NCBI GenBank assembly: GCA_016201795.1
Contig: JACQCF010000010.1
Coordinates: forward strand, 79,095-143,094
From: Candidatus Omnitrophota bacterium
GTDB lineage: Bacteria; Omnitrophota; Gorgyraeia; Zapsychrales; Fredricksoniimonadaceae
Reading direction: 5' to 3'
Length of the DNA stretch: 64,000 nucleotides
This document shows, one piece after another, positions 8,312 to 11,800 of the stretch. Below the pieces are notes generated by a model, which saw only the letters and a program-made list of their open reading frames with translations, searched no databases and was not told where the DNA came from. The position numbers were made by a program, and so were the translations under genes. Every line of letters begins with the position of its first letter. Within the stretch, counting starts at the first letter, position 1.

Positions 8312-8334
8312 GTTGATCATCCTCCTTTGATTCA

Positions 8335-8362
8335 ACTATATCATAAAATATGGAAATGTCAA
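8335..8362 (-). promoter_or_regulatory. Promoter for antitoxin-toxin operon (TTGACA-16-TATAGT on minus strand)
   Basis: Minus-strand TTGACA corresponds to + strand 8357-8362, and TATAGT to + strand 8335-8340. Followed by AAGGAGG and ATG 8311. Confidence 0.5.
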
Positions 8363-8545
8363 ATTCATATTTTAGTATTTTAGTATATTAACAGTATGGC
8401 GATATGCCATAAAGCGCTATGCCTCAAGCGGGATATCCAAAATTTATGATATCTGTCTATATTATAATTTCCATTATGGAAATATATGTATGTAAGTTTC
8501 CAGTCTGGAAATAAGTTGAATATTCATGATTTTCTCCAAATGAAT

Positions 8546-8660
8546 CCCCTCCCCCTGTGTGGGGAGGGTAAGGGAGGGGGCATAAAAGCGATAATCTCCG
8601 TCGATCCCCCTCCCCTAACCCCTCCCACCAAGACCCGCCGTAGGCGGGTCAAGGGAGGGG
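8546..8660. promoter_or_regulatory. GC-rich nested-palindrome island with G-quadruplex-type G-tract (+ strand) and C-tract (G4 on - strand) motifs, in an AT-rich intergenic region upstream of the giant gene
   Basis: GGGGAGGGTAAGGGAGGGGG at 8561-8580, four G-tracts with loops of 1-3 nt. Near-complementary CCCCCTCCCCTAACCCCTCCC at 8605-8625. Hairpin GACCCGCC-GTAG-GCGGGTC at 8631-8649. Outer arms CCCCTCCCCC (8546-8555) and AAGGGAGGGG (8651-8660). Confidence 0.5.
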
Positions 8661-8776
8661 AATAGTGTAGAAAAACGCACCTTTAAAAGAATTTCGAAAA
8701 AATATTCCAACAGCGACGTAACTTATTGAAAATAAACAATATAAATATTTAAAAGTATTTGAGAAAATTTGCTAAC

Positions 8777-8786
8777 TGTATATAAT
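8777..8786 (+). promoter_or_regulatory. Candidate extended -10 promoter (TGTATATAAT) for giant gene
   Basis: TGnTATAAT-like sequence 65 nt upstream of ATG 8851. No good -35. Only a weak ribosome-binding site before the ATG. Confidence 0.3.
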
Positions 8787-8850
8787 GTGTTATACTCTTC
8801 TTATACGACGAGAACTCGTTAAAATTAGAGCTTAACCAAGCTAATTCTTA

Positions 8851-11800
8851 ATGAATAAAAACGAAGAATTCAATCAAAAAACCCCCCAGGACGATGGTGG
8901 TTTTGCTTTTATTCCAGAGAATATAGATAAAAGCAAAAAATCAGATTTCCCCTCGTTGCAGCCTCCAGAAAGCATTTCCCCAGAGCAGGTTACGTCAATT
9001 AAACCGGAAATTCCTTTAGCCGACAAAAGGCCGTTTGTGAGCAATTTCAAACAATGGATCAGGACGGTCGCCATCGTGATTCTGGCGGTGTTTGTGCCGG
9101 ATCAGGTGAGCTGGGCATTTGGCTATAACCCAACGGTGCTGTATAAAAACCTGCCTATTGCCCAGGCGCCGTTGACTGGGGTAGGGGCGATCAATGATCA
9201 CCCCCAACAGGCAAGCGCCCAGGTTGCCGGTTCGGTGGAATACTTGCTCAAGCAGATCCAGGATAAAGACCGGCTGAGGGTACAATTAAATTTGGATAAT
9301 CAGCCGGTCAGTCAATGGTCAATGGTCAATGGTCAAAATATTCTACCATCCACTATTCACCCTAAACCATTAACCGTTGACACCCGCACCACGTTTGATC
9401 AAAACAACATTGCCAAAATTACCCAGTGGCTCTCTGATCCCAATCTCAATGTTCTTAACTGCGGGGTGTATGCCCTGCAGGAAGTGCTGGCCAAGAAAGG
9501 TATCAACCGCTCCCTGGAAGAAATTTCCGTGCTGACGGTCTCCACGGATTTGCTGGCCAATATCATCAAGGTGGGCGAGCCCAAACTCAAGACCACGTTG
9601 TTTGCCATCAGCAAAGTCGGCTCCGCCCTGGGGCTTAATTACCAGGCGCTTAAAGTCGAGGCCAAAGAGGAGCTCAATTTACCCGCGCCTTTTATCGCCC
9701 ATTTAAACAGCGAGCATTTTGTGACGGTCAAAAAGGTCAGCGGGCACAAAGTCTTTATCGATGATCTTGGCCATCCGCAGATTGTTGAGCGCGCCGAGTT
9801 TGAGAAAAATTTAGACGGGTTTGTGTATACAGAAATTCCGTCAAGTGTCATTGCGAGCGAACACAGTGAGCGAAGCAATCTATTAGATTCTCATCAAAAG
9901 ATTGCTTCAGTCGCTACGCTCCTTCGCAATGACACAGCCATACAATACGAAATCGTCCCCGAAGCCATGCAAGCCTTTGTCTGGGGCGACAAGTGGCGCG
10001 ACAGGTCGCAGAACCTGCCGGGGTTGTTTAACGCCGAACAGTTTGCCATTACCCAACTCACCGCAATCGTGGGAGCCTTTTGCCCGGTATGCGGCCTGGC
10101 CATGACCGTTGGTTATCAAGCTGCCAACGGCGCATCCATGGAGCAAATTGGAATGACCATTGGTATCGCCGTGGCGATGATGGCCTTATCAGCAGCGGTC
10201 GGCGCGGCTAGCAACAGCGGCGGGTCTACTACAGATGCCGGAGGGACAACTGGCACTGGAACAACAGGCACCGAGGTCACGGGAACAACAGGCACCGAGG
10301 TCACGGGAACAACAGGTACGGAAGTCACCGCTGGAACAGGCACACCAGTCGGTACAGGAGTTGGCACTGCAACATCTACAACTCCCACCACTTTCGGGGG
10401 CCGGTTTTGGGGCAATTTTACAGGCAACTTTACTAAACCGGTTTTAAGCGTCGGAAATCTTACCATGAGCTTCGTCGGCATGGCCGCCAGCAGATTGGCG
10501 GGGGACATAGCTACGATTTGCGTGCTGGAGGGAGCCTGCGATCAGACCACCGGATTTATTTTAAGCACCGCGCTTTCGATTGGGTTAACCGTTGGGGTCG
10601 CGTCTGTCGCTAATTTCGGGAAAACTGCTCCTGTGGATGCCAGCAAAGATACACTGGCTAATGGCGGCACAGAATTTGACGCTCAGTACGTTCATGATGC
10701 TGTTGCCGGCGGCGCGAGCCCAGACGATGCCACCTTTTGGGCCTGGTTTGATGGAGCATCAGAAAAGCAAGCTATGTTAATTGGGACGGAAGTCGCCAAA
10801 TTTTCAGGAAGTTTCTCAAATTTCGCAACAGCTTTTGCCAAAGGTCTTGCCAAAGGCCTTGTTTTAGGCGCGGTCAAAGGCATTGTGTCATTGGAAGTCA
10901 CTCAGGCCGTCAACAGCGCCATCTGCCCTCATCAAAATAAATGCAGTGAAAGCGATAAAATTTTGTCGCAGACCCTGGGCACGCTTCTGTCTTCCGTGGC
11001 CTCCGATGTGGCGGTTGCCACGGTGAGGTATATCGGCGATAACATTTCTAAGGGAGCAGCCGGTTTCGGCAAAATGCCGGGAACCCAACCAGGAAAAACA
11101 GATGCTTTTATTGCTGCGGAAAATAAAGTCAAAGATATCAGCAATACGCAGGAGTATGAAACTGCAATGGAAAAGGCTGGGGATGATTGGTTCCGTCAAA
11201 GATACGATAAAGCCATTAAAAATGGCGAAGATCTTAGCAAAATAGATTTTGAGGGGGGCGTTCAACAAGCGGAACAACAGTGGAAGGCTTCCACCAATCA
11301 AGACAACTTTTTTAAGGGTGAACTCGGTTACATGGCAAACAATAACGGCAGCGAAGGCGAGTGGCATCCAGCCAACTTCTTTAAATATACGGGGGTGATT
11401 TTAAAAGCCGACCTTCCCTTTATCGCCGGTCAGCTCACCGGCGGGGCCCTGCGCCTGGCCGCGGCCCAGATGGGCATTAAAGCTGACAGCCAATTCTCCC
11501 AAGGTTTTGCCGCAGCCGGTAACCTCCTGAGCAGTGCAGCTATTCAGTATGGGTTTGACAAAACTTTCAGAGAGAGGCCTTTGCTTGACTTTGATAATGG
11601 AATGAAAGGGTTCAGCTCCAGCATCATAGGAGGTATGGTCATGCTGGGCGCTACCCAGGCGGTCATGTCCATGGGATTAATAGCTTTAGAAGGCGCCATC
11701 GTGGGCAAGGCCCCGGGCAGAAATGCTTCGGCCAGACAACTGCGCGATTATGAAAACAATTTGGCCGTATTTCGAACCACGTTTTTGATCGACACCAGTT

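Follow-up and report, generated by a model that had tools for sequence, protein, structure and literature searches.

The intergenic region between a toxin-antitoxin (TA) operon and a giant gene of a Candidatus Omnitrophota bacterium (assembly GCA_016201795.1, contig JACQCF010000010.1, positions 79,095 to 143,094; these 64,000 nucleotides are referred to here as the window) contains a GC-rich, nested palindromic island at positions 8546 to 8660. What is such an island, and does it serve either of its neighbors? The first-pass annotation, made from the letters alone, had offered three possibilities, namely, a structured element with a regulatory role, a small RNA, and a member of a repeat family. 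We propose, with a probability of about 0.75, that the island consists of two inverted BoxC/PIT-type repeat units with no gene between them, that it is the nonautonomous counterpart of a cassette carrying a DUF559 nuclease gene between the same two units, and that it was inserted in the spacer between operator-like repeats and the promoter of the giant gene.

All the components that had been picked out beforehand were found in the island. The G block GGGGAGGGTAAGGGAGGGGG (8561 to 8580, + strand) is followed 25 nt downstream by the C-rich block CCCCCTCCCCTAACCCCTCCC (8606 to 8626), and the two blocks are complementary at 80% of positions across 20 nt. The small GC hairpin, composed of GACCCGCC (8632 to 8639), GTA, and GGCGGGTC (8643 to 8650), is perfect and lies at 8632 to 8650, one base to the left of the quick count. 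The outer arms are CCCCTCCCCC (8546 to 8555) and GGGAGGGG (8653 to 8660). Besides, the GC content is 0.64 at 8550 to 8649 and 0.22 to 0.32 in the adjoining intergenic DNA, which confirms a GC island in an AT-rich region. Both the predicted folding of the island and the matches to its G block, compared with shuffled sequence (see below), are far outside what chance would give.

We found that these components make up an inverted pair of one unit type of approximately 35 nt, with one unit readable on each strand in the order pyrimidine arm, loop, purine arm, 3-nt loop, and mirrored purine arm. The left unit (8546 to 8580, + strand) consists of the pyrimidine arm CCCTCCCC (8547 to 8554), the first loop CTGTGT (8555 to 8560), the purine arm GGGGAGGG (8561 to 8568), the second loop TAA (8569 to 8571), and the mirrored purine arm GGGAGGGGG (8572 to 8580), which is the order known from the BoxC/PIT/TMECO repeats (PMC4666352). 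The right unit (8606 to 8660, - strand) is an inverted copy and consists of the pyrimidine arm CCCCTCCC (8660 to 8653, corresponding to GGGAGGGG on the + strand), a first loop of 26 nt that holds the nested GC hairpin, the purine arm GGGAGGGG (8626 to 8619), the second loop TTA (8618 to 8616), and the mirrored purine arm GGGGAGGGGG (8615 to 8606). The unit ends read (A/T)T-CCCC and GGGG-A(A/T). The centre between the units, CATAAAAGCGATAATCTCCGTCGAT (8581 to 8605), is 25 nt long and takes the position of the DUF559 gene in full-length relatives. In the antiparallel register, all eight positions of the left unit give allowed purine-motif triads (seven G.G-C and one A.A-T), and the right unit also gives eight of eight (G.G-C and A.A-T).

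This arrangement of the arms is a property of the whole family. We restricted the family-wide triad test to loci that had been retrieved by protein (L120 to L199), which avoids the bias of a DNA query, and obtained 95 nonredundant hairpins whose purine arm is asymmetric and whose third segment is G-rich. The triad rule was followed perfectly by 64 of the 95 hairpins in the mirror register and by 11 in the direct register, and when third arms were shuffled among units (500 trials), the mean was 10.9 perfect hairpins and the maximum was 20. The third-arm base opposite an A-T pair was A in 124 cases, T in 41, C in 3, and G in none. Across the family, the Watson-Crick pyrimidine/purine hairpin and the mirrored third purine arm co-vary, which is an intrastrand-triplex grammar, and this grammar appears, from the pattern of bases, to be selected. 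The island had also been described as capable of G-quadruplex (G4) and i-motif formation. As a property of the sequence this description stands: the canonical G4 motif (four G tracts of at least 3, loops of 1 to 7 nt) occurs in GGGGAGGGTAAGGGAGGGGG on the + strand and in GGGAGGGGTTAGGGGAGGGGG on the - strand, and the purine half on the + strand shows loop lengths of 1-3-1. As a description of the family it does not, since G4 potential leaves the pyrimidine arm and the mirror-register A/T co-variation unexplained, and so we take the triplex grammar, not G4, as the family feature.

Of the three possibilities, membership in a repeat family is the one that holds. Scanning one genome per species with the core 20-mer of the unit, we obtained at least 118 matching stretches, whose hosts include Alphaproteobacteria, Nitrospirota (Thermodesulfovibrionia), Omnitrophota, Planctomycetota, Chloroflexota, Dormibacterota, Bdellovibrionales, and others. 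The 20-mer is often multicopy, with several copies within single metagenome-assembled genomes (MAGs), and near-identical unit sequence is common to several phyla. Every 20-mer among the matches listed has a complementary pyrimidine arm 5' of the core. Many family copies are inverted pairs 20 to 120 nt apart, and others form one long palindrome. The copies show no positional preference, with some in intergenic DNA, some between genes that converge or diverge, and some in frame within open reading frames (ORFs). At the threshold of up to 3 mismatches, the 20-mer has one site in the window, and none of 100 shuffles contained any match; besides those of 8546 to 8660, we detected no further pyrimidine/purine hairpins in the 64 kb. 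A public assembly of the same locus (Logan contig SRR12113409_116617) breaks inside the element at window position 8587, right after GGGGGCATAAAA. This fits an element that recurs in the sample or is difficult to read through, and such a break, being what assembly graphs do at repeats, hints at other copies. Phages were considered as the vector of the units and rejected: the 20-mer turned up in just 5 viral stretches, and viral contigs yielded no relative of DUF559.

The closest published parallel is the BoxC repeat of Escherichia coli and other Proteobacteria, a palindromic repeat found in E. coli in the 1990s that was later renamed the PIT element and then TMECO (PMC4666352). Studies on the PIT element cited there are those of Bachellier (1999) and Hoyne and Maher (2000, 2002). 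In common with the window units, BoxC/PIT/TMECO repeats have a C-rich arm, a short loop, a G-rich arm, a 3-nt loop (TTA, TAA, or CCG), and a mirrored G-rich arm. In common with the family at large, they form G.G-C, A.A-T, and T.A-T triads, are interspersed, occur as inverted pairs on opposite strands, show no preference for a gene class or position, and are tied to variable regions. In fact, 5 inverted pairs are found among the 23 TMECO copies of E. coli, and TMECO loci vary more than control loci (PMC4666352). Single-stranded TMECO adopts a class II purine-motif intrastrand triplex of very high stability, and not a G4, as judged by circular dichroism and nuclear magnetic resonance (NMR), with melting temperatures of 70 to 82°C; with the complement present the duplex prevails, and dimethyl sulfate footprinting in vivo gave no stable triplex (PMC4666352). 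Earlier work on the E. coli repeats detected no promoter or terminator activity (cited in PMC4666352). The likeness is not complete. The window arms are 8 nt long with a single A (CCCTCCCC/GGGGAGGG/GGGAGGGG), whereas TMECO arms are 9 nt long (CCCTCNCCC/GGGNGAGGG). Furthermore, the host is Omnitrophota-like and not a proteobacterium; relatives of the window units are also found in frame inside genes, whereas BoxC is described as always intergenic; and DUF559 genes are bracketed by units here, whereas no accompanying mobility gene is reported for BoxC. BoxC was reportedly first described by Bergler in 1992.

The link to DUF559 came from the neighbors of the units. In an all-against-all clustering of ORFs from 118 unit-bearing loci, DUF559 was the only recurrent neighbor within 200 nt. 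Unit-bracketed DUF559 genes (PF04480, E = 1e-37 to 1e-41) were found in a Rickettsiales MAG, in Bradyrhizobium japonicum, and in an Omnitrophota MAG, and these three are the only DUF559 ORFs in loci L001 to L119 (approximately 800 kb), each bracketed by two inverted units. We also carried out the reverse test. A DUF559 profile gave 562 confirmed metagenomic loci, of which we kept the best 80, that is, those most similar to the unit-flanked queries; 72 of these have both flanks. Pyrimidine/purine hairpins were present on both flanks in 55 of the 72 DUF559 genes and at none of 943 control positions, and on at least one flank in 70 of the 72 genes and at 30 of the 943 controls. The full arrangement, with a left-type unit 5' and a right-type unit 3' of the gene, was seen in 41 of the 72. 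The arm sequences vary between cassettes, with the grammar constant, and the second purine arm often lies 4 to 12 nt 5' of the DUF559 start codon, like a Shine-Dalgarno sequence. The encoded protein has approximately 110 amino acids; its ORF is intact in 78 of the 80 loci, the ExDGxxH motif is present in all 80, and the median pairwise identity is 53%. Its closest solved structure, PDB 3HRL, a protein of Neisseria gonorrhoeae, is annotated as "endonuclease-like protein," and its sequence similarity to Vsr is weak (PMC1189080).

The full-length form, consisting of a unit, the DUF559 gene, and an inverted unit, measures approximately 430 bp, and cassettes that are 80 to 88% identical to each other occur in unrelated flanks. 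In L148 and L175, the outer edge of the left unit is exactly where the homology starts, and it stops just past the right unit. The spacing of inverted unit pairs is bimodal, at 18 to 118 nt in gene-less pairs and at 325 to 410 nt in pairs with DUF559. A gene-less pair and a cassette from two Omnitrophota MAGs (L088 and L095) have identical units (35/35 and 22/22 nt) and differ by one block of approximately 316 nt, which is the DUF559 gene. The closest relative of the window copy that we found is itself a cassette, L120. The left unit of the window aligns to the left unit of L120, with the arms GGGGAGGG and GGGAGGGG the same in both, and the right units of the window and L120 align over their full length, nested hairpin included; in L120 this hairpin reads GCCCCGCC-TTT-GGCGGGGC and differs from that of the window by one compensatory pair (A-T versus C-G). 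Similar nested hairpins are present in cassettes L141, L145, and L191. We detected no DUF559 ORF between the window units or elsewhere in the window. Alignment of the 25-nt centre with both ends of the DUF559 genes in L095 and L120 gave at best an 8-nt match, to the 5' end of a DUF559 gene, and a hidden Markov model search over all gene-less centres, which are not conserved, found no DUF559 remnant.

The E. coli genome contains the same two partners side by side. NCBIfam assigns the DUF559 family to E. coli YcjD, and the ycjD-fabI intergenic region has the BoxC copy CCCCTCGCCCCTCTGGGGAGAGGGTTAGGGTGAGGGG downstream of ycjD, the DUF559 gene of this species. The sapF-ycjD-BoxC-fabI segment is present in 3,346 of 5,426 E. 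coli genomes. The alternative occupant of the sapF-fabI interval is not an empty unit pair; it is the 7.5-kb eefRABCD efflux cluster, which ycjD replaces in several E. coli phylogroups with at least two independent events inferred (PMC12817139). These observations fit a variable locus. Between E. coli K-12 (L204, 5040 to 5850) and strain APEC E19019 (L211), we observed the right-hand boundary of the difference approximately 25 nt from the BoxC unit, and a partial duplication of the 3' end of ycjD lies downstream of ycjD.

We then return to the surroundings of the island in the window. The giant gene starts at an ATG at 8851 and continues past the end of the window at 64,000, giving more than 18,000 codons within the window, and its product begins with a Peptidase_C39 domain. 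On the other side lie a MazE-type antitoxin ORF (PF04014, - strand), whose upstream side is near 8320 to 8335, and to its left an 85-amino-acid partner ORF, also on the - strand. Promoters were predicted as sigma-70-like consensus matches. The TA-operon site, TTGACA-16-TGnTATAGT (8362 to 8335, - strand, 11/12 of the consensus), is approximately 185 nt from the element and points away from it, and the giant-gene site is TTGAGA-16-TATAAT (8759 to 8786, + strand, also 11/12). The latter belongs to a conserved promoter block, TATAAT followed by GTGTTATACT (8759 to 8796, + strand), approximately 100 nt downstream of the element. The island thus does lie between the two promoter-like sites, upstream of each, as had been noticed; the position is correct, and nothing indicates that separating them is its function. 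Outside the element there are two operator-like TTTCCA-N3-TGGAAA palindromes (8467 to 8483 and 8497 to 8513), which from their sequence are probably the operator sites of a regulator; a further site of this type is located at 8349 to 8357.

Comparison with related genomes separates the conserved from the variable parts of this region. The N terminus of the giant protein has homologs of approximately 55% identity in Omnitrophica, and four of the contigs (L200 to L203) include the upstream region. The promoter block, AAATTTGCT..TGTATATAAT(A/G)TGTTATACT, conserved over window positions 8764 to 8796, is common to the window, L200, L201, and L202, and the operator-like repeats ATTTCCATTCTGAAT and CAGAATGGAAAT are found at the corresponding place in L200 to L202. 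None of the four upstream regions contains the pyrimidine/purine element; the spacer between the operator-like repeats and the promoter holds other small palindromic repeats there. The element is missing there while the promoter and the TTTCCA repeats are kept, and so it appears to be a lineage-specific insertion in a variable, insertion-tolerant spacer and no conserved part of the regulation of either operon. The idea of a structured regulatory element therefore finds no support here, given this absence and a family without positional preference. From the orthologs, from the position upstream of both promoters, and from the published negative promoter and terminator tests on the E. coli relatives, we consider that a dedicated regulatory role at this locus is probably lacking.

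Some features of the relatives touch on the same region. In the four Omnitrophota relatives, two T2SSF (PilC-like) genes lie directly 5' of the giant gene; in the window, a 406-amino-acid ORF, a helix-turn-helix/phosphoribosyltransferase-like ORF, and the MazE-type TA pair sit between the T2SSF genes and the giant gene. The other spacer repeats (L200, 2560 to 2660; L202, 1880 to 1910 and 2040 to 2110) are of the types GTCATTCCCGCGAAAGCGGGAATCC and GTAGGGGCCGAC...GTCGGCCC / GGGCGGAC...GTCCGCCCCTAC. We take both types, GTCATTCCCGCGAAAGCGGGAATCC and GTAGGGGCCGAC...GTCCGCCCCTAC, to be widespread in metagenomes, and the GTCATTCCCGCGAAAGCGGGAATCC repeat is also found in frame, as "IPAKAGIH," in P0004.

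Two readings would keep a local function for the island. In the first, a G4 or i-motif switch would sit between the divergent TA and giant-gene promoters, and its folding would modulate transcription or supercoiling. The purine half of each unit does contain four G tracts of at least three with short loops, many family units are G4-capable (70 of 112), and the island really is placed between divergent promoters. All four orthologous upstream regions lack the element, though, with promoter and operator-like repeats kept where they were traced, the family shows no positional preference and enters ORFs, and the complementary pyrimidine arm and the mirror-register A/T co-variation are left without explanation. 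Furthermore, the TMECO oligonucleotide is a triplex by NMR and a duplex with its complement, and earlier work on these repeats detected no promoter or terminator activity (PMC4666352). We regard such a switch as quite improbable. In the second, the island would encode a structured small RNA or act in cis at the RNA level (as a leader, an attenuator, or a terminator), which we find hardly credible. The predicted folds of the island, computed with ViennaRNA from Watson-Crick pairs only, are indeed very stable, at -74.4 kcal/mol (z = -5.9) on the + strand and -79.5 kcal/mol (z = -6.6) on the - strand, with none of 200 shuffles as stable in either case, and there is a weak terminator-like match at 8568 to 8547 on the - strand. 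That the strands fold equally well is expected of a DNA palindrome, however, and the terminator-like site has no proper T tract. No Rfam covariance model matched in the window at the gathering score, and the matches at E ≤ 10 were just subthreshold chance matches, nearly all to eukaryotic microRNA hairpin models. The element lies upstream of both promoter-like sites, the conserved one included, and is not conserved at the orthologous loci, all of which speaks against the small RNA of the earlier proposal. Purine-motif triplexes, moreover, do not form in RNA (cited in PMC4666352).

The remaining two readings accept a mobile repeat and differ from ours in what moves it. The island might be a doublet (REPIN) of REP (repetitive extragenic palindromic) elements or a miniature inverted-repeat transposable element (MITE), moved by a RAYT/IS200-like Y1 transposase or by the transposase of an insertion sequence (IS), with DUF559 incidental. 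Our family resembles REP/REPIN with RAYT (REPtrons) in its short GC-rich palindromic units and inverted doublets (PMC3116915, PMC3733652), in having many gene-less copies and few that bracket a small enzyme gene, and in occasional copies in ORFs, as also known for REPs (PMC3733652); the GI REP of Pseudomonas fluorescens even has GGGAGGGGG/CCCCCTCCC arms (PMC3116915). In REPtrons, however, the bracketed gene encodes a Y1 (IS200-like) transposase and not a DUF559 PD-(D/E)XK nuclease, and REPs are largely species specific, whereas our units are shared across phyla, have no GTAG/CGTC tag, and possess a mirrored third arm that is foreign to REPs. GTAG occurs in the window element only in the loop region of the nested hairpin (8640 to 8643), and the unit ends are without GTAG or CGTC. 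DUF559 was the sole recurrent neighbor in the 118 loci, with no dedicated Y1 transposase scan of all ORFs. Regarding the criteria for MITEs, inverted ends are present, a consistent duplication is not, and the gene-bearing relatives encode DUF559 rather than a known transposase. We judge this reading to be very improbable.

The more serious variant is that the units arise or spread without a dedicated enzyme, by template switching, slippage at stalled forks, or insertion targeted to hairpin loops, and that DUF559 is a homing-type selfish gene colonizing preexisting pairs; the window copy would then never have had a tie to any nuclease cassette. Examples of PD-(D/E)XK or Vsr-type homing endonuclease genes are I-Ssp6803I and I-Bth0305I. 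The cassettes appear similar to them, in that conserved flanks either do or do not enclose a small free-standing nuclease gene as a single block, and differ from them in having no intron or intein and in being flanked by a dispersed repeat and not by a unique host gene. The bimodal gap without decayed intermediates and the gene-less centres without remnants fit a discrete insertion of the gene at least as well as its deletion, small palindromic repeats do nest in each other's loops, and units are far more numerous than DUF559 genes, of which the 118 unit-bearing loci contain 3. On the other hand, since the gene-less centres lack conservation, the units themselves are the only evident candidates for a homing site, and the homology between cassettes ends at the outer edges of the units, not at the edges of the gene. 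This variant differs from our preferred explanation only in which part moves; both the DUF559 cassette and the homing gene fit, and the data do not separate the two. We consider the enzyme-independent variant unlikely.

Several observations weigh against the interpretation as a gene-less BoxC/PIT-type cassette derivative. Around the island, the window holds a single copy of the element and no DUF559 gene, the centre shows no demonstrable remnant of such a gene, and the orthologs are only approximately 55% identical, so that no clean empty site marks the boundaries of the insertion. The window units do not follow the strict TMECO pattern, CCCTCNCCC-N3-6-GGGNGAGGG-N3-GGGNGAGGG (PMC4666352), and the 26-nt first loop of the right unit exceeds the limits in published searches, which were 0 to 10 nt (Hoyne et al.) and 1 to 6 nt (Holder et al.). 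At the level of the family, the flanks of about 20 pairs showed no consistent target-site duplication and only a short inverted-repeat extension, (A/T)T...A(A/T); the share of G4-capable units given above is near that of triad-perfect units (77 of 112); and the association with DUF559, seen in loci selected for similarity to unit-flanked queries, may hold for a subfamily only. In E. coli, no transposase, integrase, mobile element, or mobility function was found near TMECO, and no stable triplex was detected in vivo (Holder et al. 2015, PMC4666352). Taken with these points, the element is very probably a BoxC/PIT-type inverted pair, that is, a repeat insertion and not an RNA gene, and it is likely to be the gene-less counterpart of a DUF559 cassette.

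Copies within genes are a further aspect of the family. In-frame units were found at L202 (2700 to 2745), L045 (5128 to 5955), and L039 (1487 to 2896), in L015 and L054, and in L032, L046, and L097. The host genes include the N termini of giant proteins, a QueC-like ORF with two copies, HisC/CobD-like aminotransferases, and large Omnitrophota proteins; the QueC-like and aminotransferase-like ORFs are from Thermodesulfovibrionia. The units are translated into peptides such as PSPSRGEGKGGGE and SLPPVGRVREGG. Among the orthologous giant proteins, P0001 and P0003 carry an in-frame family copy, "VPSPSVGRVREGG," where P0002 has a gap. A second hot spot holds "PPPGGEGQGGGN" in P0003 and a different in-frame palindromic repeat in the window. 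Rickettsia palindromic elements (RPEs), of about 100 to 150 bp, insert in frame at variable loops of proteins. Relatives of the window units resemble RPEs as small palindromic repeats in frame in protein-coding genes, whereas the sequence family is unrelated, the length is different, and the window copy is intergenic. RPEs are also discussed in PMC3733652.

Other repeats were observed in the company of the units. Within the giant ORF, at 9860 to 9950 on the + strand, there is an 87-nt near-perfect hairpin, GTCATTGCGAGCGAAC...GATTGCTTC...CGCAATGAC (-44 kcal/mol), which is in frame, encodes "ASEHSERSNLLDSHQKIASVATLLRNDT," and has no counterpart in the orthologous proteins. The giant gene has thus received an in-frame insertion of another palindromic repeat, unrelated to the first. 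Cassettes L143, L147, L175, L138, and L167 are bracketed by another inverted repeat, ..AAAATGAGTGGGTAA / TTACCCAC..TTT.., and it seems that small palindromic repeats insert preferentially into each other's loops or centres. In one Anaerolineales MAG, the same stretch of approximately 60 nt (GAAGAAGCAATGTCCTTGTGACTGCCCGATTTCTACATCTT...) abuts a unit at three loci (L090, L098, and L106), which suggests a larger repeat or an IS end that targets the unit or travels with it. Besides, Kaistia dalseonensis has three tandem units with a 189-nt period (L086, 97 to 494), a distinct mode of amplification in tandem.

As for how the family might work, the units likely act as DNA and would fold only when single stranded, in replication or repair. 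DUF559 may recognize or nick the folded or duplex units and so cause the pairs to be copied, to home, or to be maintained, whether in cis or in trans; this step is a tentative one. Gene-less pairs such as that at 8546 to 8660, as well as the in-frame copies, would be nonautonomous derivatives that depend for their copying or upkeep on DUF559 and its action on folded or duplex units. Locally, the TA and giant-gene promoters are likely to be affected only incidentally or not at all. The genomic association makes it possible that the units are a target of DUF559, which would drive how they spread or are maintained, and we suggest with similar reserve that BoxC/PIT/TMECO repeats may be the terminal inverted repeats of minimal selfish cassettes that cross phyla and have DUF559 as their sole gene.

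At this locus, the GC island does not appear to act as a conserved switch of either the giant gene or the TA operon, which removes a tempting but unsupported story; what was found, no conservation at the orthologous loci and a repeat family without positional preference, is the very outcome that the first-pass annotation had named as contrary to it. BoxC-type repeats reach far beyond Proteobacteria, with near-identical units in Omnitrophota, Nitrospirota, Planctomycetota, and other phyla, and in the nonproteobacterial phyla the units are also found in frame in proteins, including the N termini of giant proteins. The new element here is the tight bracketing of DUF559 nuclease genes by BoxC-type units. 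We found no published link between DUF559 and BoxC in the open literature searched, and subscription papers on PIT elements may mention one. The presence of the DUF559 gene between the same two units in full-length relatives may explain the spread of a long-orphan repeat family. If the nuclease does act on the units, the 30-year question of how BoxC/PIT repeats spread and why their loci are unstable would become testable with a small protein and a 35-nt substrate. It would also give a first function to DUF559 (E. coli YcjD, PDB 3HRL), a very common domain, and would constitute a new, nuclease-driven mode of repeat spread.

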